Source: Klebsiella pneumoniae (GTDB taxonomy: Bacteria; Pseudomonadota; Gammaproteobacteria; Burkholderiales; UBA3065). From it: a DNA stretch of 64,000 nucleotides. The notes under the pieces are model-generated. The model searched no databases. It saw nothing but the letters and a program-made list of their open reading frames with translations, and had not been told where the DNA came from. A program made the translations under genes and the position numbers. Below are positions 2,404-59,006 of this stretch, piece by piece (position 1 is the stretch's first letter; each line of letters starts with the position of its first letter). The stretch spans positions 54,866-118,865 of the forward strand of contig CAMDGF010000001.1 of the NCBI GenBank assembly GCA_945897555.1, given 5' to 3'.

Positions 2404-3576
2404 ATGCTTCTGCACGGCCTGGTCGAGCTCCCCTGGTGGGGCTATATCGTTGTAGCGCTCGTTTTCACACACATCACCATTGCCGCGGTCACCATCTACC
2501 TGCACCGGCACTCGGCGCACCGCGCGCTCGACCTGCATCCGCTGCCCGCGCACTTCTTCCGCTTCTGGCTGTGGCTCACCACCTCCATGGGTACGCAACA
2601 GTGGACCGCCGTGCACCGCAAGCACCACGCCCGCTGCGAGACCGAAGAGGACCCGCACAGCCCGCAAGTGCTCGGCATCAGAAAGGTGCTGTGGGAGGGT
2701 GCGGAGCTCTACTCGGCGGCCAAGAACAATGCCGAGATGCTCGACACCTTCGGCCGCGGCTGCCCCGATGACTGGATCGAGAACAAGCTCTATCTGCCGC
2801 ACCAGAACCTCGGCATCATCCTCATGCTGGCGCTCGACCTCATCCTGTTCGGCCCCATCGGCGCCACCATCTGGGCGGTGCAGATGATCTGGATCCCGTT
2901 CTTCGCCGCTGGCGTGGTCAATGGCATCGGCCACTACTGGGGTTATCGCAATTTCCAGTGCGACGATGCCAGCACCAACATCGTGCCGTGGGGCATCCTC
3001 ATCGGCGGCGAGGAGCTGCACAACAACCACCACGCTCACCCGAGCTCGGCGCGTCTGTCCAACAAGTGGTACGAGTTCGACATCGGCTGGCTCTACATCC
3101 GCATCCTCGAGACGCTCGGCCTTGCCAAGGTCAAGAAGACGGCACCGCAACTGGTCACCGGTGCTGCACGCAGCGAGTGCGACCGGGCGATGCTGAACGC
3201 CGTCATCACCCACCGCTGGGTCGTGCTGGAGCAGTTCATGCGCGACATCCGTGGCACCTGCGCTGCCGAACTGGAGACGCTCAGCCGCTCCTCGCGTCAT
3301 GGCATCAACTGGACCACAGCGCGCCGCTGGCTGCATCTGGACAAATCCGCTCTGCCTGAGGCCGAGCAGGCGCGCGTCGGCAAGGTGCTGGAGAAGAGCG
3401 CTGTGCTGTCCACCCTGCATCGCATGCGGCAAGACCTTGGCGCGCTGTGGAGCCGGTCGAACGCGACCACAGAGCAGCTGGTGCAGCAACTTGACGACTG
3501 GTGCGATCGCGCCGAACGCAGTGGCATCGAAGCGCTGGTCACTTTCTCGCGGCGCCTGCGCACCTTCCAAGCCTGA
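2404..3576 (+). CDS. membrane fatty-acid (acyl-CoA/acyl-lipid delta-9 type) desaturase
   Basis: 390 aa with N-terminal TM segments and three His boxes (HRHSAH, HRKHH, HNNHHAH). Confidence 0.85.
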   Translation: MLLHGLVELPWWGYIVVALVFTHITIAAVTIYLHRHSAHRALDLHPLPAHFFRFWLWLTTSMGTQQWTAVHRKHHARCETEEDPHSPQVLGIRKVLWEGAELYSAAKNNAEMLDTFGRGCPDDWIENKLYLPHQNLGIILMLALDLILFGPIGATIWAVQMIWIPFFAAGVVNGIGHYWGYRNFQCDDASTNIVPWGILIGGEELHNNHHAHPSSARLSNKWYEFDIGWLYIRILETLGLAKVKKTAPQLVTGAARSECDRAMLNAVITHRWVVLEQFMRDIRGTCAAELETLSRSSRHGINWTTARRWLHLDKSALPEAEQARVGKVLEKSAVLSTLHRMRQDLGALWSRSNATTEQLVQQLDDWCDRAERSGIEALVTFSRRLRTFQA

Positions 3577-13464: not shown

Positions 13465-14985
<1,521 letters not shown>

Positions 14986-40973: not shown

Positions 40974-43310
40974 TTACTTGTCGGTCATCACCCAGACACC
41001 GTCCCACTCACCCTCCGGCGGGGTGGCTTTAAGCAGCTCGCAGCGCTCGATGTAGGTCTTGCTGAGCTTGTCCTTGGGGTTGTACGAAAGCGCTTTCTCG
41101 AAAGCGGCAACGGCATCGTCCCAACGGCCTGCCCGGTAGCGCGCAAGGCCTTCGGTGAAGTTGCCGAGCACGTCCATCATGTTGGGGAAGCTGTCGGGTG
41201 TGTGGTAGTCCAGCACCTCGTAGATGCTCACCGGCTGGGTCTTGCCCTTCACCACCACCAGATCGACCTCGCGCATGCGGTAGATGCCGCGCAGCTTGGC
41301 CTGCGTGAACTCGGAGATGAGGATCTTGGCCGAATACTGCTTGCAAGCGGATTCGAGACGAGCCGCAAGGTTGACGCCATCCCCGATGACGGTGAAGTCC
41401 ATGCGCTTCTTGGAGCCGATGTTGCCGCTCACCACCACATCGGTGTTGAGGCCGATGCCGATGTGGACGGGCAGCTTGCCCTCGGACTCGCGCACGACGT
41501 TCCACTCGTTGAGCTCACGGATCATCCACACCGAGGCGCGCACGGCCCGATCCTCGTCGTCGTCGTGCGCCAGCGGGATGCCAAAGCCCGCCATGATGGC
41601 GTCGCCGATGAACTTGTCGAGCATGCCACCCTCGCGGGTGATGCAGTCGACCATGATCTCAAAGTACTCGTTGAGCAGCGTCACCGTGGCCTGCGGCCCG
41701 AGCGCCTCGGTGAGCGTGGTGAAGCCGCGGATGTCGGAGAAGAGCAAGGTGGCGACCACGCTCTGCCCGCCCATCGCCTCGCCACCCTTGGCCATCAGCT
41801 GATCGGCGATGGCCGGGTCGACGTAGCGCGACATGGTCGACTTCATCCGCTTCTCGGACGAGATGTCTTCAAACATGACCATGGTGCCGAGGTGCCCGCC
41901 TTCGACGTTGGTCAGAGGCAGGATCGTTGTGTTCACCGAGACGTGCTCACCCTCGATGGTCATTTCAGCGTCCATGGTGATGTCTGGCTCGGATTCCGCG
42001 GTGAGCTTGCGCGCCTTCTCCATCACCCACGCATTGGCCTCGGTAAAGATCTCCTCGGCCTTGCGGCCGATGATGTCTTCGACACGCTGCTTGAGGATCT
42101 TCGATCCGGCGCTGTTGCAGGTGACCACCTTCTCGGTCTCATCCAGCGTGATCACGCCGTTGCTCATCGACTCGAGCATCGACTCGTTGTAGTTCTTCAT
42201 GTTCTGCACGTCGGCGAACAAGCTGGCGTTCTCCAGCGAGATCGCGATCTGCGCAGTGAATGCCTTGAGTCGGGATTCATCTTCGCCAGTGAAGACACCG
42301 TTCTTCTTGTTCAGCACCTGGGTGACGCCGATCACCTTGCCCTTCTGGTTGATGATCGGCACACAGAGGATGCTGCGGGTGAAGAACCCCGACTTCTTGT
42401 CGAATGCCGGGTTGAAGCGCAGGTCGGCGTAGGCGTGCGGGATGTTGATGGTCTTGCCGCTGCTGAACACCGCTCCGGCGATGCCCGCGGTGTTGGGCAG
42501 GCGGATCTGCATCGAGCCGAGCCCCTGCCCGACCTGCGACCACAAGGTCTGCGTCTTTTCGTCGTTGAGGAACAGCGTGCTGCGCTCGGCGTTGAGCATG
42601 CGCGTCGCCTCGGTCATCACCTTGTTGAGCAGCGAGTCGATCTTGATGTCGGAGGTGAGGTCGCTCACCACCTCGAGGAACTCGAGTTCCTGCTCACGGA
42701 TGCGTTTCATCCGCTCGACCAGCGCCATGCTCTCGAGGCCGAGCGCGCCCTGCGTGGTGATGGCCGCGAACAGTTCCTGATCCTGCTTGGTGAACTTGCC
42801 GATCTTCTTGTTCAGCGCCTGCGCAACACCGATGAGCTCGCCCTTGGCGTTGCGGATGGGCACACAGAGGATGCTTTGCGTCTTGTAGCCGGTGCGCTGA
42901 TCGACCGAGCTGTCAAAGCGCTTGTCCTTGTAGGCGTCGTGGATGATCGCCGGCTCGCCGTTATGGTAGACCCAGCCGGCGACACCACGGTCGTTCATCA
43001 GGCGGATCTCCTGCGTCAGGTTGCCCTGCGCGACCCGGCTGTAAAGCTCGTTGGTGGCCGGGTCGTTGAGGAACAGCGTGCTGCGATCGGCCTCCAGCTG
43101 TTCGGTGCTGACCTCGACCAGCAAGTGCAGGATCTGGTCGAGCGAGTCCATCGCCGCGACCTTCTCGGAGATCGACAGCAGCAGCCGCAGCAGGCTCTCC
43201 TGCCAGGTCTTGCCAACCATCGCCACCGAATAGGCGGACGAGTGTGCCGACTTGGCGGCAGGGGTCCGACTACGCGTCTTGGGGGTGCTTGGGGGCTTGG
43301 TCGTGGTCAT
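40974..43310 (-). CDS. GAF-GAF-PAS class III adenylate/guanylate cyclase with a C-terminal TPR-like tail
   Basis: 778 aa. Cyclase core FSDIRGFTTLTE...DKFIGDAIMAGFG...GDGVNLAARLES. Confidence 0.85.
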   Translation of the reverse strand: MTTTKPPSTPKTRSRTPAAKSAHSSAYSVAMVGKTWQESLLRLLLSISEKVAAMDSLDQILHLLVEVSTEQLEADRSTLFLNDPATNELYSRVAQGNLTQEIRLMNDRGVAGWVYHNGEPAIIHDAYKDKRFDSSVDQRTGYKTQSILCVPIRNAKGELIGVAQALNKKIGKFTKQDQELFAAITTQGALGLESMALVERMKRIREQELEFLEVVSDLTSDIKIDSLLNKVMTEATRMLNAERSTLFLNDEKTQTLWSQVGQGLGSMQIRLPNTAGIAGAVFSSGKTINIPHAYADLRFNPAFDKKSGFFTRSILCVPIINQKGKVIGVTQVLNKKNGVFTGEDESRLKAFTAQIAISLENASLFADVQNMKNYNESMLESMSNGVITLDETEKVVTCNSAGSKILKQRVEDIIGRKAEEIFTEANAWVMEKARKLTAESEPDITMDAEMTIEGEHVSVNTTILPLTNVEGGHLGTMVMFEDISSEKRMKSTMSRYVDPAIADQLMAKGGEAMGGQSVVATLLFSDIRGFTTLTEALGPQATVTLLNEYFEIMVDCITREGGMLDKFIGDAIMAGFGIPLAHDDDEDRAVRASVWMIRELNEWNVVRESEGKLPVHIGIGLNTDVVVSGNIGSKKRMDFTVIGDGVNLAARLESACKQYSAKILISEFTQAKLRGIYRMREVDLVVVKGKTQPVSIYEVLDYHTPDSFPNMMDVLGNFTEGLARYRAGRWDDAVAAFEKALSYNPKDKLSKTYIERCELLKATPPEGEWDGVWVMTDK

Positions 43311-44987: not shown

Positions 44988-46133
44988 CTACTCCTCTTCG
45001 GCGACCGGTGCTGGCGCATAGCCGGTCTCCCAGTCTGGTAGACCGACCTTCACCAGCGCCGGATCGGGTCGAGGATGGTTCGATGGGAGCGTGCGAACCT
45101 CGCCACTGGTATCGACACCGCCGCGCCGCCAGAACTCCGGCCAGTCGCTTTTCATGGTCACGCCATAAAGTGGCTTGTAGGTCCCTTTGTGGCAGGTGGC
45201 GCATGCCACCTTTGGGCCATCACCCTCGGCGCTGAGGCGGTAGTCGGGAAACAAGCCCTGCAGCGGCATGAGGTAATTGACGTTGAGGCTGCGCACCATG
45301 CGGATGCCATACCAAGCGGTGATGCGCTGTGGCGAACTCTGTTCCCACCGCGCCAGCGCGCGGGTGTTGTGGCAATAGTCGCAGTTCACCCCGAGCGACT
45401 TGGCCATGTAGATCATCAGCCCGTAGGTGTGCTCGGCCTTCTTCACCGACGTCGGGTTCGACCCGGCCAGCGGTTGCGTACCCTGCACGCGGATACTGCC
45501 CGGATCGGCCGACATGAGAAAGGTGGTGAGCGGATCGTTGGGCAAGGATGAGTTGCCGACCGTCGCCACGCCGGGTTCGTCTTGGCCATCGCGGTTGCCG
45601 AGCATACGCACCTGCTGCACTGGCCGCGAGAACCAATCGCCGCTGGGCACTGCCTGGCCGCGGTGGCAGGTCCAGCAGGTGACGCCCGTCGACCCGACGT
45701 GCTGGGTCCACTCATTGTTGATCGTGCGCGTCATCTGCAGCATTCGCCGTGCCACGACCTTGGTGTATTTCTCATCGGAGGCCATGTTCTTGGTGTTATG
45801 GCAGTAGACACAGCCTTCTTCGGGCGCCACCCAAGTGACGAACGCGGCCATCACTCGTGACAACTCGTTGACGCTGAGGTCCTGGAGAACCTGGATGTTC
45901 TTGTAGCGCTCGGTGATGGTGGGTTGGCCGATGATCGGCGGGTCTGCCGGATCCTCGGGCTCAGGGATGGCGTTGACTGGCCTGAGCGCATCGACCGCAG
46001 CGGGCTTGTACATCTGCACCAACCCGGTGCCGCGAAAGCCACTCTGCACCGGTTGTGTGGATTCGGTGAGCAGGTAGGCGAAGAACAGCACGCCGACAAA
46101 GGCAGCTGCGATTGCGGCAAAGACGCGGACCAT
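44988..46133 (-). CDS. pufC: photosynthetic reaction-centre tetraheme cytochrome c subunit family protein (PufC-like), N-terminal membrane anchor
   Basis: Start at MVRVFAAIAAAFVGVLFF, preceded by AAGGAGGAGA. Four CxxCH motifs (CVYCH, CWTCH, CDYCH, CATCH) with RC-cytochrome-type spacing and the FVTWVAPEEGCVYCHN motif. Confidence 0.85.
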   Translation of the reverse strand: MVRVFAAIAAAFVGVLFFAYLLTESTQPVQSGFRGTGLVQMYKPAAVDALRPVNAIPEPEDPADPPIIGQPTITERYKNIQVLQDLSVNELSRVMAAFVTWVAPEEGCVYCHNTKNMASDEKYTKVVARRMLQMTRTINNEWTQHVGSTGVTCWTCHRGQAVPSGDWFSRPVQQVRMLGNRDGQDEPGVATVGNSSLPNDPLTTFLMSADPGSIRVQGTQPLAGSNPTSVKKAEHTYGLMIYMAKSLGVNCDYCHNTRALARWEQSSPQRITAWYGIRMVRSLNVNYLMPLQGLFPDYRLSAEGDGPKVACATCHKGTYKPLYGVTMKSDWPEFWRRGGVDTSGEVRTLPSNHPRPDPALVKVGLPDWETGYAPAPVAEEE

Positions 46134-46191
46134 CTCTCCTCCTTGCCCGCCCGGATGCACGGCGGATCTGATCGGGCCTGAGTGGCCTCTA

Positions 46192-46235
46192 TGTATAGCT
46201 ATTGTGACGATTTATGCTGTCACGTCAACATGACA
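46192..46235. promoter_or_regulatory. two PpsR/CrtJ-type palindromes 8 bp apart overlapping a candidate promoter of the pufC-like gene
   Basis: 46218-46235 is TGTCACGTCAACATGACA (perfect TGT-N12-ACA) and 46192-46209 is TGTATAGCTATTGTGACG (TGT-N12-ACG). On the minus strand, TTGACG-N17-ACAATA falls inside the two sites. Confidence 0.5.
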
Positions 46236-46243
46236 GTCAGGGC

Positions 46244-46271
46244 AAAAAGAAGGGCCTCATGCCGAGGCCCC
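46244..46271 (-). terminator. rho-independent terminator after the HiPIP gene
   Basis: The minus strand reads GGGGCCTCGGCATGAGGCCC followed by TTCTTTTT. Confidence 0.7.
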
Positions 46272-46298
46272 GGAGAGAGACGGGAATCGATGAGCCGC

Positions 46299-46616
46299 TC
46301 AGGCGTTCTTGACGGCCTTGAAGTTCTTGCACCAGCCGCCGGCCGGGGTGTGACGCTCAAAGAACGAGCATTCGGCGTACTCATCGCCCGCCTTGCCCGC
46401 CCACAACTGGCACTTGCTGCATTGCTGTTCAGCGGTCCAGCGCTTGTACTTGGCCTTGTCGACCTCCTCGGTCTTGAGCTTGAAACCCATCGATTTGGCG
46501 TACGGGTCGGCTTCGGACAGCTTCTCGCTGGCGGCCTGGGCGACCTGCGGCAGCAGGCTCGCAGCAGCCACGCCGGCCACTGCCTTGATCATGAAGGTTC
46601 TGCGGGACTGCTTCAT
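46299..46616 (-). CDS. high-potential iron-sulfur protein (HiPIP), Tat signal
   Basis: 105 aa. Twin-arginine SRRTFM. Four Cys in HiPIP spacing (CSKC...C...GGWC). Confidence 0.9.
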   Translation of the reverse strand: MKQSRRTFMIKAVAGVAAASLLPQVAQAASEKLSEADPYAKSMGFKLKTEEVDKAKYKRWTAEQQCSKCQLWAGKAGDEYAECSFFERHTPAGGWCKNFKAVKNA

Positions 46617-46664: not shown

Positions 46665-47273
46665 TCAGGGCCGCGGCGCGCGCACCAGCGACACACCCTC
46701 GGCACGACGGACCAGTCGCACATGAAGACGCTCGCCAGGCCTGCCGATGCGCACGCCGTCGCCACCGAAACTGAGTGCAAAGGCCGCCAGCTCGGGGCCC
46801 TCCACCAGCCTGCGCGAAGCGCTCCAGTAAAAACCCTCTGCGGTCGCCGGGAACGCATCGAGGTTGATCCGCGGGTCGCGGCAATTCACCTCGCTGATGC
46901 TCGCCAGCTCGCGCAGATTGGGAAGGCGCCAATCGGCATAGAAGAGATCGCCACGGTCGTTGACGTCGCGCACCCAAGCCTCTGCCGCAGCCCAGTCGAG
47001 GTCGGCTGGCAGGCCTCGGCAAACAGAATCACGCCACATCTGTCCGGCTGAACACCTCGCCCAGTGAAGCCCGGTGCGCCGGTCAGTCAGAGTGCCGTCG
47101 CCATGGTCCTCGAAATCGGCCAAAGTCGAACTAGGAATGAACTGTTCGCTGCAGGTTTGCGCTGCAACACCGGCCGGGTGCAAACACCCGGCCAGGCACA
47201 GCCACACAACGCCAAACCAGCTACTTGGTGTCAAAACCGATGCCCGACGGCTTGGACGGGAAGCCCTTGCCAT
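46665..47273 (-). CDS. DUF1566 (Lcl C-terminal domain) lipoprotein
   Basis: Lipobox LAGC after a hydrophobic stretch. DWRLPNLRELASI motif typical of DUF1566. The 5' end overlaps the cytochrome gene by up to 53 nt, so the start is uncertain. Confidence 0.65.
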   Translation of the reverse strand: MARASRPSRRASVLTPSSWFGVVWLCLAGCLHPAGVAAQTCSEQFIPSSTLADFEDHGDGTLTDRRTGLHWARCSAGQMWRDSVCRGLPADLDWAAAEAWVRDVNDRGDLFYADWRLPNLRELASISEVNCRDPRINLDAFPATAEGFYWSASRRLVEGPELAAFALSFGGDGVRIGRPGERLHVRLVRRAEGVSLVRAPRP

Positions 47274-47730
47274 ACTTGACCGGGATCGGTTTGGTCTGCT
47301 GAGCAGCCAAGCCCGGCTGGATCGGCAGGCCTCGATGCAGGTTCATAGCGTAGGCGTACATCGCCGTCATGTCCTTGCTCTCAAGCCCCAAGGCCTTACC
47401 TGCCTGCGGGTTCTGGATGCACCAGTTCACCATCTCGCCCCATTGCACCACCCGGTTCATGTTCTGGATGTACTTCGGGAAGGTCTGCGGGTTGGAAGCG
47501 CCCGCATCGGGATGGCAGTTGCCGCAAGCCAGACCGTTGCTGGTCATGTCAGGGTTGGACCCGTGCCAGAGGTTGTAGCCCAACTCGACCAACTCCAGCA
47601 GCTTGGCGTTCTGCTCGTCCAACTCCGCCTTGCCGAAAGGCTCACGGGCCTGGGCAGCACCGGAGGCCAACGCTGCCATCACGGCAGCGGGAATGGCGAG
47701 GGCAAGTGTTCTTTTGAATGTCGCTCTCAT
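47221..47730 (-). CDS. periplasmic monoheme c-type cytochrome
   Basis: 169 aa. Sec signal ending AAQA, a single CGNCH, then FPKY...VNWCIQNP. Confidence 0.8.
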   Translation of the reverse strand: MRATFKRTLALAIPAAVMAALASGAAQAREPFGKAELDEQNAKLLELVELGYNLWHGSNPDMTSNGLACGNCHPDAGASNPQTFPKYIQNMNRVVQWGEMVNWCIQNPQAGKALGLESKDMTAMYAYAMNLHRGLPIQPGLAAQQTKPIPVKYGKGFPSKPSGIGFDTK

Positions 47731-47747: not shown

Positions 47748-48758
47748 TCAGGCCTTGAGGCCCTTCTTGAGGAAGGGGGTCAGAGAGTCGGCGAAGGGCT
47801 GGTACTCGACCAGCTTGCTACCGCCGGCCTTGACGTTCACCGCCAGCGTGCCCATGCCATCGACCTCGTTCCCTGGGTCGGCGCGGTTCATCTGCGAACC
47901 GGGATAGGCCAACTTGACCGGCGGATAAGGCCAAGGCCACGAGGTGCTCATGGCGCCGATCGAGGTCATGTTGCCGATCTTGTTGTAGAGCGTCTGGTGC
48001 ACATGGCCGTGGATCGAGGTGAAGTTCTCGAAGCGCGACAGGATCTCGCGGATCTGCGGACCGTCCACGGTCTGGAAATTCCAGCGCGGGTAGTAGTCCC
48101 ACAGGGGCGAGTGGGTAAAGGTGACGATGGGCGTGTCCGAGGAAAGCTTGGCGACGTCTTTCTTCAGCCAGTCCAGTTGCTCGGCACCCACCCCCCACAA
48201 GCCGCCGATCGGGCCTTCGAGCATCTCCATGGCTTCCATACGCTGGCGCGGGGACATCTGCTTGGCGGTCCAGAAATCCGGCACCAGGATGGAGTTCATG
48301 CCGATAAAGTGCACGCCCTTGTGGTCGAACGACCAGTAATCACGGCCGAACATGCCCTTCCACGCATCGCCCATGTCGACGTACCAGTCGTGTTCACCGG
48401 GGATGACCACCAGCTTGGTGTCGAGAGCAGCCAGCAGCTTCTTGCCCTTGGCGAGCTGATCCTCGGTACCGTTCTGGGCGATGTCGCCACCGTAAAGCAC
48501 GAAGTCTGGCTTGATCGCCATGTTGTTGACCTGCTCGACGGCATCCTCGAGCTGGCGATCGAACTTGTGGTCCTCGCCGCTGTAGAGGTGCGAATCGGTG
48601 ATCATTGCGAAACGGAACGGCGAGACCTTCTTGCCCGGCTGGGCGTGGGCCAGGTCGAATACGCCGAGGTTGATGCCCGCAGCGCTGCCGACGATGGTCG
48701 ACAGCCCGGCCTTGCCGGTGAGCTGCAGGAATTCGCGTCTGTCCTTCTTGTGATCCAT
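47748..48758 (-). CDS. Tat-exported calcineurin-type metallophosphoesterase
   Basis: Start at MDHKKDRREFLQ (twin-arginine motif), preceded by AAGGAGA. Motifs DSH, GGD, GEHD, THSP and HGHVH. Confidence 0.8.
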   Translation of the reverse strand: MDHKKDRREFLQLTGKAGLSTIVGSAAGINLGVFDLAHAQPGKKVSPFRFAMITDSHLYSGEDHKFDRQLEDAVEQVNNMAIKPDFVLYGGDIAQNGTEDQLAKGKKLLAALDTKLVVIPGEHDWYVDMGDAWKGMFGRDYWSFDHKGVHFIGMNSILVPDFWTAKQMSPRQRMEAMEMLEGPIGGLWGVGAEQLDWLKKDVAKLSSDTPIVTFTHSPLWDYYPRWNFQTVDGPQIREILSRFENFTSIHGHVHQTLYNKIGNMTSIGAMSTSWPWPYPPVKLAYPGSQMNRADPGNEVDGMGTLAVNVKAGGSKLVEYQPFADSLTPFLKKGLKA

Positions 48759-49055: not shown

Positions 49056-49529
49056 ATGTCTGCCCTCTCTTCTGCCGCAACGAGCGCCTCCCGCCGCCGC
49101 GCGCTGCAAATCCTCGCCACGCTGGCGGGTGCCATCGGTGCCGCTTGGGCATCCGCCGCTCTGGCCGGACTGCCTCGGCGCAGCTTTGAGCCCGAACCGT
49201 TCGACGTGGCTCTGCGCAAGCTGGGCGTCACCGCGGCCGAGCCCTCTTCGGCGATCGAGTTGCTGCTGCCCGACGTCGCTGAGGACGGCGCCGCTGTGCA
49301 GATGAGCCTGAGCACCACGTTGGCGGCCCGCCGCGCCCTTTTGCTGGTGCGGCGTAACCGCATACCCCTGGTGGCTGAATTCGCGTTCCCGCCCGGCGCG
49401 CTGCCATTCGTCGCCACGCGCATCAAGTTGGCCGAAGATTCCGAGGTGCTGGCCTTGGTCGAAGCCGACGGACGTTGGTATTCAGCCAGCCGCCAGGTCA
49501 AAGTGACGCTGGGGGGTTGCGGTGGTTAG
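49056..49529 (+). CDS. soxY: sulfur carrier protein SoxY (Tat signal, C-terminal GGCGG)
   Basis: Start at MSALSSAATSASRRRALQ. PDVAEDGAAV motif. The protein ends ...VKVTLGGCGG. Confidence 0.85.
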   Translation: MSALSSAATSASRRRALQILATLAGAIGAAWASAALAGLPRRSFEPEPFDVALRKLGVTAAEPSSAIELLLPDVAEDGAAVQMSLSTTLAARRALLLVRRNRIPLVAEFAFPPGALPFVATRIKLAEDSEVLALVEADGRWYSASRQVKVTLGGCGG

Positions 49530-49537
49530 GGGGCGAT

Positions 49538-49849
49538 ATGCCTGAAGCGATGCGCATCCGCGCGGTGGAAAAAGACGGGCTGGTGGATGCTCGGGTGCAG
49601 ATCCGTCACGACATGGAGTCGGGCTCGCGCCGAAACGAGTCTGGCGAGGTGGTGCCAGCCTGGTACATCACCGGATTCACGGTGGAGGTGGACGGGCGCG
49701 AGGTGTTCGCCGCGCAACTCGGTCCCGGTGTGTCGCGCAATCCGCTGCTGCACTTTCGCTTCAGGGACGCCCGCAAGGGCCAGATGTTGGTGGCGCGCTG
49801 GCAGGACAGCCGTGGCGAGACGCGCGAAGACCGGGGGGTTATCGATTGA
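49538..49849 (+). CDS. soxZ: SoxZ, partner of SoxY
   Basis: 103 aa starting 8 nt after soxY. IRHDMESGSRRNESGEVVPAWYI matches the SoxZ signature H-x-M-E-(S/T)-G. Confidence 0.85.
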   Translation: MPEAMRIRAVEKDGLVDARVQIRHDMESGSRRNESGEVVPAWYITGFTVEVDGREVFAAQLGPGVSRNPLLHFRFRDARKGQMLVARWQDSRGETREDRGVID

Positions 49850-57035: not shown

Positions 57036-59006
57036 TCAGGCCGTGGCCGGCACAGCCTCCTGCAGGCGACGCACGCTGGCCTCGATACCGGGGGCATCGA
57101 GGCCCTCCATGGCCAGCAAGGTGGCGTGGTCGCCATGATCGATGAAACGGTCGGGCAGGCCAAGGTGGTGGATCGGCACCATGGGGATGCGGCTGCCGAG
57201 CGCCACCAGACCTTCGGCGCAGGCCGAGCCAGCCCCGCCCTGCACCACATGCTCCTCGACCGTGACCAGCAGGTCGTGGTGATGGGCCGCCCACGCCAGG
57301 GTGTCGAGGTCAAGCGGCTTGACGAAGCGCATGTTGATCACCGTGGCGTCGAGCGCCTCAGCCGCCTTGAGCGCTGGCGAGACCATCGACCCGAAGGCGA
57401 GGATGGCGACACGGGCGCCTGCTGCCGCGACGCCTGTGCGCAACACCTCCGCCTTGCCGACCGGGAGCGGCTCGAGCGTGTCGGTGGCGTCGATGCCGGC
57501 GCCCGCGCCACGTGGATAGCGCACTGCGCTCGGCCCGTCGTAGGCGAGCCCTGTACTGAGCATGCGCCGGCACTCGAGCTCGTCCTTGGGCGCCATCACC
57601 AACATGTGCGGGATGCAACGCAGGAAGCTGTAGTCGTAGATGCCGGCATGGGTGGCGCCATCGGCGCCGACCAACCCGGCACGATCGAGCGCGAACATCA
57701 CCGGCAGCTTCTGCAAAGCGACATCGTGGATGAGCTGGTCGTAGGCGCGCTGCAGGAAGGTGCTGTAGATCGCAACCACGGGCTTCAGGCCTTCGCAGGC
57801 GATGCCAGCGGCAAACGTCACCGCGTGCTGCTCGGCGATGCCAACGTCGTAGTAGCGATCAGGGAAGCGCTCGGCGTACTCGACCATGCCGGAGCCCTCG
57901 CGCATGGCTGGCGTGATGGCCACCACGCGCGGATCGGCACTCGCAGCGTCGCACAACCAACGGCCGAACACCTGCGAATAGGTCGCCTTGGCCGGCGCGG
58001 CGGGCTTGATGCCAGCCGCCGGATCGAACTTGCCAGGGCCGTGGTAGAGGATGGGATCGGCCTCGGCACGGTCGTAGCCAGCCCCCTTGCGCGTCACCAC
58101 ATGGAGGAACTGCGGGCCCTTGAGCCGGCGCAGGTTGATCAGCGTCGGCACCAGTGCATCGAGGTCGTGTCCGTCGATCGGGCCGACATAGTTGAAACCG
58201 AACTCCTCGAACAGGGTGCCGGGGGTGACAAAACCCTTGGCAGTCTCTTCGACGCGGTGCGCGAGTTCGCGCATCGATGGCAGGCCGCTGAGCAGTTGTT
58301 TGCCGAGCTCCTTGGTGCTGGTGTAGAGCCGGCTCGAGAGCAGCCGGGTGAGGTACTTGGAGAGCGCACCCACCGGCGGACTGATCGACATCTCGTTGTC
58401 GTTGAGGATCACCAGCAGGTCGATGTCGCGCTCGATGCCGGCATTGTTGAGCGCCTCGAAAGCCAGCCCGGCACTCATGGCGCCATCGCCGATCACGGCG
58501 ACGTGCCGACGCCGCCCCGAGCCCTCATGCTCACCCTTCTGCCGCGAAGCGATGGCCATGCCCAATGCAGCCGAGATGCTGGTCGATGAGTGGGCGGTGC
58601 CAAAGTGGTCGTACTCACTCTCACAACGCCGCGGAAAGCCCGACAGCCCTTTGAGCTGACGCAGGCTGCCCATGCGCTCGCGGCGACCGGTGAGGATCTT
58701 GTGCGGGTAGCTCTGATGCCCGACATCCCAGATCAGGCGGTCATACGGCAGGTTGAAGACGTGGTGGATGGCCACCGTGAGTTCCACAGTGCCCAGATTC
58801 GATGACAGATGCCCCCCGGTGCTCGCCACCGAGCGCAGCAGGAACTCGCGCAGTTCGGCAGACAGCTGCTTGAGCTGCGCACGACTCAGCGCGCGCACCT
58901 GCGCCGGCGCGTTGACCTTGTCCAGGACCGATTCCAGATCATCCATGGGCCCGAATTGTGCGCCATCCAGGCGAGTGAATGTTGCGGCGCGATCCATCGT
59001 GTTCAT
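57036..59006 (-). CDS. dxs: 1-deoxy-D-xylulose-5-phosphate synthase
   Basis: 656 aa. [12 protein letters not shown] and IGDGAMSAG (ThDP) motifs. The start overlaps the puhE stop (ATGA). Confidence 0.92.

Follow-up and report, generated by a model that had tools for sequence, protein, structure and literature searches.

The tetrahaem cytochrome of the photosynthetic reaction centre (RC), PufC, was part of the first membrane-protein complex with a solved crystal structure and, to our knowledge, has been regarded as a gene that occurs once, in the puf operon. [quoted passage not shown] HiPIP and the RC cytochrome form a donor pair in Rubrivivax gelatinosus, Rhodoferax fermentans, and Thermochromatium tepidum, and a co-crystal structure is available (PMC7889895). 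HiPIP is also known as the electron acceptor of TsdA in Allochromatium vinosum (PMC3368242). Here, we analysed a stretch of 64,000 nucleotides (hereafter the window) of contig CAMDGF010000001.1 from assembly GCA_945897555.1, which encodes a PufC-type tetrahaem cytochrome directly downstream of a HiPIP gene. We use the name PufC-H for the clade of HiPIP-linked PufC proteins that includes the window protein. The family, the fold, and the partnership with HiPIP are already known, whereas the combination of a conserved paralogous clade, a fixed gene cluster, an operator of its own, and a form fused to OmpA appears to be undescribed.

A scan of one genome per species with motifs from the PufC-H alignment gave 341 relatives, of which the best 80 were fetched with 10-kb flanks; their neighbour content was read by tblastn with the neighbouring proteins of the window. 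Beyond four sister species, whose PufC-H are 83-91% identical to the window protein, identity falls to 66% or less. A neighbour-joining tree of 152 sequences split 81 HiPIP-linked from 71 pufM-linked PufC in 200 of 200 bootstraps, with 50% identity between the two groups and 60-62% inside them. With four RC-bound PufC of known structure plus that of Blastochloris viridis included, the HiPIP-linked clade stayed at 100% and none of them joined it; the PufC from Chromatiaceae structures clustered with the operon copy of a Thiohalocapsa locus (L060, 98.5% bootstrap). Three alignment columns are diagnostic (PufC-H/operon-type: D61/G, Y242/H, and K316/Q), and the window protein is of the PufC-H type. 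The lipobox GCERPP is present on almost all operon copies, while PufC-H have either a GCERT-type lipobox or a Cys-less helix. Reciprocal monophyly of the beta- and gammaproteobacterial PufC-H was unsupported in the tree (bootstrap 0.12-0.15), and neither vertical descent nor transfer between the two groups is favoured.

The operon-type gene was surveyed by a metagenome scan anchored on PufM (80 loci, 72 of them with room downstream). PufC follows pufM in 71 of these 72 loci and scores higher with operon-type queries than with the window protein in each of them, and the HiPIP cluster is absent from the pufM-anchored loci examined. The exception, on a low-GC contig (L154, 2956-3396 and 3470-3943), has pufM followed by genes for an azurin-type blue copper protein and a TspO-like protein, without pufC. 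Among the 80 PufC-H loci, the gene adjoins pufM nowhere unless a second, operon-type copy is also there. One locus (L052, pufM at 13879-14862) was considered as a case of pufM without pufC and rejected, as there is no pufL upstream and wrbA/marR are found there instead; its complete pufM lies tail-to-tail with the cluster HiPIP and is either an orphan or part of a chimeric contig of a metagenome-assembled genome (MAG).

Two PufC genes occur together in three loci (L039, L042, and L060). In L042 and L039, bchG-pucC-bchP precede a block of PufC-H, which shares 58% identity with the window protein, and the Metallophos, SoxA-like, Lcl_C, and HiPIP genes; this block is convergent with bchZ...pufL-pufM-pufC, the operon copy being 50% identical to the window protein and lipobox-bearing. 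In the Thiohalocapsa locus, the cluster and another PufC come after pufL-pufM-pufC; the operon copy scores 476-558 bits to the solved Chromatiaceae RC cytochromes (7C9R, 7VRJ, 8WDU, and 3WMM) and the HiPIP-linked copy 337-365 bits to the same structures. The annotation of the complete Thiocapsa bogorovii genome lists the operon PufC (LT988_08865) plus a second "RC cytochrome c subunit" (LT988_21295) that comes right after SoxY (LT988_21280) and SoxZ (LT988_21285) (PMC10892978), and several pufC and two HiPIP genes are mentioned for Thiocapsa sp. LSW (PMC8767323). In full-text searches of the literature we found no published analysis of a pufC paralogue, only these uncommented annotation lines (PMC10892978, PMC8767323).

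Together, the tree and the coexisting copies indicate that PufC-H is an old paralogous clade conserved across orders and not a puf-operon gene that was moved. A first-pass annotation of the window had left the choice between a relocated sole pufC and a second paralogue, and had suggested a phylogeny against operon-encoded PufC; the 100% bootstrap split of the HiPIP-linked clade and the coexistence of both copies favour the second paralogue and speak against relocation. It had also stressed that donor and acceptor are encoded side by side. HiPIP does adjoin PufC-H, but it belongs to a distinct subfamily and the adjacency is the tail of a cluster of five to seven genes. The cross-order gene family, the conserved cluster with its sulfur-type components, the PpsR-type operator, and the HiPIP subfamily were not covered by that annotation. 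In this organism, the window gene is likely the second paralogue, and an ordinary pufC probably exists in the genome's own puf operon.

The window gene itself encodes a haem-complete PufC-fold tetrahaem cytochrome that is held at the inner membrane by an uncleaved N-terminal helix. The ATG-start version (381 aa) is that of the public gene callers, has exact matches on 23 contigs, and is preceded by a GGAGGAG ribosome-binding site; a longer open reading frame (ORF) with a GTG start (44988..46160, minus strand) has 390 aa. The protein matches Pfam CytoC_RC (PF02276) over profile positions 5-308 of 310 (E=2.9e-120, 401.8 bits, cut-off 22.4) and the NCBIfam PufC equivalog (NF040706) with 415.4 bits (cut-off 150). 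There are four CxxCH motifs (C108VYCH, C153WTCH, C251DYCH, and C311ATCH), and each of the axial ligands M95, M131, H145, and M240 is in place, with 100% conservation within the clade. The sixth-ligand positions were placed using the numbering of Blastochloris viridis PufC, and the mapping was then checked by alignment. All 16 haem-binding and ligand positions are invariant in 81 sequences of the clade, and the mean column conservation of PufC-H (0.70) is the same as that of operon PufC.

The N-terminus (MVRVFAAIAAAFVGVLFFAYLL) is hydrophobic and lacks Cys. An AlphaFold model from 15 sequences has a predicted local distance difference test (pLDDT) score of 41 overall, and its usable part is the N-terminal helix alone, in which residues 2-22 are confidently helical (pLDDT 82). 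The same stretch lines up with the part of Rhodopila globiformis PufC (7XXF_C) that holds its transmembrane helix; this protein is the best solved-structure relative (325 bits), and its N-terminal helix was described as an uncleaved transmembrane anchor (PMC9640540). Of the two ways in which PufC is anchored, a lipidated Cys or an uncleaved helix, the window protein uses the Cys-less helix.

These features bear out the first-pass description of a 381-aa protein with four CxxCH motifs and an uncleaved-looking anchor, the ligands being complete and the helix free of Cys. Three further observations made there also held: the gene lies about 11 kb from the photosynthesis genes with housekeeping genes in between (10.9 kb from the dxs end to the PufC-H start), tblastn returned no pufL or pufM in the window, and the upstream gene encodes a HiPIP exported by twin-arginine translocation (Tat) and has its own terminator, as seen from the Pfam match, the SRRTF motif, and a hairpin with T-tract at 46271-46251 that is conserved in four species.

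The spacer between HiPIP and PufC-H is 165 bp long and contains a terminator-like hairpin, a promoter-like site, and two palindromes. In the loci of four related species (L011-L014), the hairpin is kept through compensatory changes, and the palindrome pair is retained although the spacer has otherwise diverged. The first palindrome, TGTCACGTCAACATGACA (46218-46235), is perfect and the second, TGTATAGCTATTGTGACG (46192-46209), has one mismatch; they are the sole such pair in the window. Paired TGT-N12-ACA sites 8 bp apart are the established operator of CrtJ/PpsR, as worked out in Rhodobacter and Rubrivivax. Across the 80 loci, the 350-400 bp upstream of PufC-H hold 1.7-2.0 perfect palindromes per kb versus a background of 0.14, a 12-fold difference; for the stretches upstream of the Metallophos, SoxA-like, Lcl_C, SoxY, and HiPIP genes the figure is 0-0.26. 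At least one site precedes PufC-H in 41 of the 80 loci and a perfect pair with 8-bp spacing in 13 of the 80.

The fetched loci, 2.49 Mb in all, contain 24 perfect pairs: the 13 upstream of PufC-H and 11 within photosynthesis clusters (e.g., L107 1163, L116 547, L138 994, L154 7418, L158 3237, and L162 3269). Three of these 11 are just upstream of a crtD-like gene and a fourth is flanked by bchG and a crtD-like gene. For the remaining seven, no adjoining gene was matched, and their distance upstream of pufM fits the usual positions of the crtE and bchC promoters. The bchZ-pufL spacer, used as a positive control for the operator, had no palindrome enrichment; the placement of the perfect tandem pairs did serve as a working control. 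The ppaA/bchF spacer of a locus of the same lineage (L091) has only near-matches to TGT-N12-ACA. Genes for PpsR (PAS and HTH_8 domains, 478 aa) and PpaA stand beside bchF in this lineage. PufC-H is predicted to have its own promoter with a PpsR/CrtJ-type operator. Since operator pairs are found both at PufC-H and in photosynthesis clusters and the lineage has ppsR, PufC-H is apparently switched with the photosystem, separately from the upstream genes of the cluster. The features of the window cluster are listed in Table 1.

Table 1. Features of the PufC-H cluster and its regulatory spacer in the window (window coordinates)
Feature	Position	Strand	Evidence
PufC-H, PufC-fold tetrahaem c-type cytochrome, 381 aa	44988..46133	-	Pfam/NCBIfam scores, haem motifs, clade placement
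Tandem TGT-N12-ACA PpsR/CrtJ-type palindromes, 8-bp spacer, overlapping the promoter-like site	46192..46235	.	motif
Sigma-70-like promoter candidate for PufC-H: TTGACG, 16-nt spacer, CACAAT	46201..46228	-	consensus scan only
Intrinsic-terminator-like 9-bp GC-rich hairpin + T-tract, 3' of the HiPIP gene	46241..46271	-	scan
Tat-exported HiPIP, 105 aa	46299..46616	-	Pfam HIPIP (PF01355) 5.8e-13; SRRTF Tat motif; four Cys
DUF1566/Lcl_C protein, 180 aa, lipobox-like N-terminus (LAGC)	46665..47207	-	Pfam Lcl_C 2.7e-24; conserved in cluster
Monohaem c-type cytochrome, 169 aa, SoxA/TsdA-related	47221..47730	-	Pfam SoxA-TsdA_cyt-c; alignments to 1H31, 4V2K
Tat-exported binuclear metallohydrolase (Metallophos), 336 aa, motif III GEHD	47748..48758	-	Pfam; GpdQ/Rv0805 relatives
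SoxY, Tat signal, C-terminal GGCGG, divergent from the Metallophos gene	49056..49529	+	Pfam SoxY
SoxZ	49538..49849	+	Pfam SoxZ

The order Metallophos, SoxA-like cytochrome, Lcl_C/DUF1566, (SoxY-SoxZ), HiPIP, and PufC-H recurs across genomes. The cluster was detected in 77 of the 80 loci, the remaining three being short contigs with PufC-H alone. In 64 of the 80, the gene directly upstream of PufC-H is HiPIP, PufC-H stands in front of the same block in 12, and the block is divergent from it in one; SoxYZ lie inside the block in 46. No further neighbour is widely conserved around PufC-H in the 80 loci. The hosts include, on the Burkholderiales side, Rhodoferax, Limnohabitans, Polynucleobacter, Rubrivivax, Methylibium, Rhizobacter, and Hydrogenophaga and, in the Chromatiaceae, Thiocapsa roseopersicina DSM 217, T. 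marina, Thiohalocapsa halophila, and Halochromatium. Photosynthesis genes lie within 10 kb of the cluster in at least 10 of the 80 loci, in addition to this lineage; in some genomes the cluster is near petABC or ccm genes and not near photosynthesis genes.

Several variants of the cluster were seen. A Gallionella MAG (GCA_039923775.1; L175, 10001-12216) has the Metallophos, SoxA-like, and Lcl_C genes with a divergent LysR gene, DoxX, and KatG, and is without HiPIP and PufC-H. The trio is therefore a separable unit, to which HiPIP and PufC-H are an addition. L179 likewise has a divergent LysR gene ahead of its cluster. In Rhodoferax-type loci (L015, 11100-12720; L022, L038, L041, L043, L044, and L046), an insert between PufC-H and Metallophos encodes a monohaem cytochrome, the flavoprotein of a flavocytochrome c sulfide dehydrogenase (fccAB-like), and a LysR regulator. 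Two MAGs labelled Sedimenticolaceae, a family not known for phototrophy, carry the five-gene cluster 7 kb downstream of petABC (L177/L178, 1-2609 and 10001-14278), with a PufC-H of 431 aa and a palindrome upstream. The Chromatiaceae PufC-H is a fusion of 900-1400 aa with a lipobox, CytoC_RC, a long repetitive coiled coil, and a C-terminal OmpA peptidoglycan-binding domain (L087, 9797-12649, in T. roseopersicina DSM 217; L060, L064, L065, L067-L070, L076, L081, L082, L085, L089, and L090).

The closest solved relative of the window HiPIP is the HiPIP of Rhodoferax fermentans (1HLQ). The HiPIP of the Thiocapsa cluster scores 64 bits to 1HLQ versus 25-28 bits to the HiPIPs of T. tepidum and A. 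vinosum. Because the Thiocapsa copy is near 1HLQ and not near the classical HiPIPs of Chromatiaceae, we regard the cluster HiPIP as a subfamily of its own, and not simply as "the" photosynthetic HiPIP. Alignments pair the 169-aa cytochrome with SoxA's N-terminal His/Cys haem domain (1H31) and with TsdA's catalytic haem domain (4V2K), the ligand Cys being in register, and C69GNCH and the ligand Cys104 are invariant among its homologues. It is a single-domain protein, and no SoxX is found in the cluster. The metallohydrolase matches no SoxB model in the NCBIfam scan. Judged from its AlphaFold2 model (pLDDT 73), the closest folds are those of GpdQ, Rv0805, and purple acid phosphatase. All metal motifs are present, and its motif III is GEHD in place of the usual GNHD/GNHE, invariantly so in 60 homologues. 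With SoxYZ in or beside the cluster, the invariant Cys ligand of the SoxA/TsdA type, and fccAB in Rhodoferax-type loci, the cluster appears to carry components of a sulfur type.

From PufC-H toward the photosynthesis genes, the window contains soxYZ, tatABC, parA, recR, ybaB, dnaX, pagL, and an EAL gene and, beyond these, dxs (57036-59006), puhE, acsF, puhCBA, and lhaA. The map was extended by look-ups of PuhA and BchN, which gave crtC-crtD-orf244-ppsR-ppaA divergent from bchFNBHLM-lhaA-puhABC-orf-acsF-puhE-dxs, bounded by rlmL and a hybrid histidine kinase. Among the matches listed, those of outgroups to the BchN of this lineage begin at 78% identity. Past the right end of the window, the locus of the same lineage (L091, 1-9162) has this piece ending in crtD-crtC, followed by rlmL and a hybrid histidine kinase of 1009 aa. 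As the mapped piece stops at rlmL and the kinase, bchCXYZ, pufBALM, bchGP, bchIDO, and crtEF/IB sit elsewhere in the genome of this lineage, and its photosynthesis cluster is split. The tblastn search for pufL and pufM used both PufL and PufM queries; the two genes were not found in the fetched flanks of the window either, nor were photosynthesis genes in its left flank. Two further assemblies (GCA_040399105.1 and GCA_021738325.1) are of the same lineage.

Two other window genes were noted in passing. A 390-aa ORF (2404-3576, plus strand) joins an N-terminal fatty-acid desaturase to a C-terminal DDE_Tnp_ISL3 transposase fragment, and the same ORF is present in public gene calls. A 778-aa protein (40974-43310, minus strand) has a GAF-GAF-PAS arrangement with an adenylate/guanylate cyclase domain and TPR and is preceded by a coiled-coil ORF; its gene is conserved beside the PufC/OYE pair within this lineage only.

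We favour, with moderate confidence, the reading that PufC-H is an old paralogue that serves as a photosystem-co-regulated haem wire with its own HiPIP on the donor side of the RC. It would be produced together with the photosystem and, anchored in the membrane and working with the cognate HiPIP, either dock to the RC as an alternative cytochrome subunit or act one step before it; the sulfur-type oxidation module encoded alongside, the bc1 complex, or both would supply the electrons. More tentatively, PufC-H and HiPIP may form a second, separately regulated port of electron entry to the RC that wires a so far unrecognised periplasmic oxidation module to photochemistry. That module might then consist of the GpdQ-like metallohydrolase, the half-TsdA haem protein, the DUF1566 protein, and SoxYZ, and it is conceivable that the port exists in hundreds of freshwater aerobic phototrophs and purple sulfur bacteria, with an OmpA tether to the peptidoglycan in Chromatiaceae. 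Several points weigh against these proposals. The tree is a neighbour-joining tree whose sets were picked by similarity to two different queries, and coexistence with a canonical pufC in this genome is extrapolated from other lineages. Constraints specific to operon PufC are relaxed in the N-terminal arm of PufC-H (window protein positions 25, 43, 45, 70, and 73), which could reflect another kind of RC contact or none, although this is weak evidence, and the fusion to a long coiled coil and OmpA in Chromatiaceae is unusual for an RC subunit. The SoxA-like protein scores 40.9 bits against the SoxA model TIGR04484, whose cut-off is 110, and the metallohydrolase was considered as a SoxB analogue and rejected, as sequence and fold point to GpdQ/Rv0805.

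Some of the same observations would suit a PufC-H that is no RC partner and instead works as the membrane-anchored electron hub of the periplasmic oxidation module, a doubtful alternative in our view. Electrons might then pass from the His/Cys haem enzyme to PufC-H and HiPIP and on to the RC via canonical PufC, or to a cbb3-type oxidase. The tight synteny with the module, the OmpA fusions, the relaxed N-terminal arm, and the clusters near petABC or ccm genes would all fit such a hub. However, the PpsR-type operator is found on PufC-H only and not on the module genes or HiPIP, a terminator separates PufC-H transcriptionally from the module in the window, the module occurs without PufC-H and HiPIP in Gallionella, and the cluster repeatedly adjoins photosynthesis genes. 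It is improbable that the puf operon of this lineage ends at pufM and that the window protein, as a sole relocated pufC, is the RC-bound cytochrome subunit. The photosynthesis cluster of the lineage is indeed split and rearranged, the protein has every feature of PufC including an uncleaved membrane helix like that of 7XXF, the gene has a PpsR-type operator, and puf operons without pufC exist (L154). Yet an operon-type pufC follows in all but one of the pufM-anchored loci with room downstream, both copies are present in every genome where both places are visible, and the window protein is in every respect an ordinary PufC-H (D61, Y242, and K316) with no reversion to operon-type residues. A decaying or functionless duplicate with HiPIP beside it by chance is extremely improbable, and conservation refutes it: the ORF is intact, the haem and ligand positions are invariant throughout the clade, conservation equals that of operon PufC, and synteny extends across two orders.

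A second conserved copy with its own HiPIP and a PpsR-type operator would be present in up to 341 species-level genomes, counted as those matching the clade motifs. If our preferred reading of PufC-H as a haem wire on the RC donor side is true, this is a part of the donor side of purple-bacterial photosynthesis that has so far gone undescribed. Since the NCBIfam equivalog gives the name PufC to either copy, a "pufC" match in a MAG does not tell whether its RC carries the cytochrome, and two pufC matches in a genome do not mean two RCs. Cultured hosts with the cluster are Thiocapsa roseopersicina, T. bogorovii, T. marina, Thiohalocapsa halophila, and Polynucleobacter sp. CS-Odin-A6.

Compared with the described systems, PufC-H belongs to the same Pfam and NCBIfam family as the operon PufC of Rhodopila globiformis (7XXF), Thermochromatium tepidum (3WMM), and Blastochloris viridis (1PRC, chain C). 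It shares with them the four CxxCH motifs, three Met/His haems and one His/His haem, and a periplasmic domain on a membrane anchor, which in the window protein is a Cys-less helix as in the full-length 7XXF type. Unlike operon PufC, it is about 49-50% identical to them, forms a separate clade with its own PpsR-type promoter, and is fused to OmpA in Chromatiaceae; it also lacks the position immediately downstream of pufM, and orthology with the RC-bound subunits was not found. The pair of a Tat-HiPIP gene beside a PufC-type cytochrome gene, with the HiPIP nearest to 1HLQ, resembles the donor pair of HiPIP and RC cytochrome, but the presumed partner of HiPIP here is a paralogue and not the structurally characterised PufC.

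The SoxAX-SoxYZ-SoxB and TsdA systems, the latter with TsdB or HiPIP as acceptor in A. vinosum, have counterparts in the cluster: a SoxY with GGCGG, SoxZ, a Cys-ligated c-haem domain, a periplasmic binuclear metallohydrolase, and HiPIP as a plausible acceptor. In contrast to those systems, the cluster has a cytochrome that is half of a TsdA or SoxA, lacks SoxX, has a hydrolase of the GpdQ/Rv0805 and not the SoxB type, and always includes the DUF1566 protein. T. bogorovii has regular soxBXA and soxYZ elsewhere in its genome, apart from the PufC-H cluster. As in PioABC, a substrate-oxidising periplasmic module appears to be encoded with its own HiPIP in a phototroph; the locus differs from PioABC in having no decahaem/porin pair, in its extra PufC-type tetrahaem cytochrome, and in its substrate, which is probably a sulfur compound and not Fe(II).

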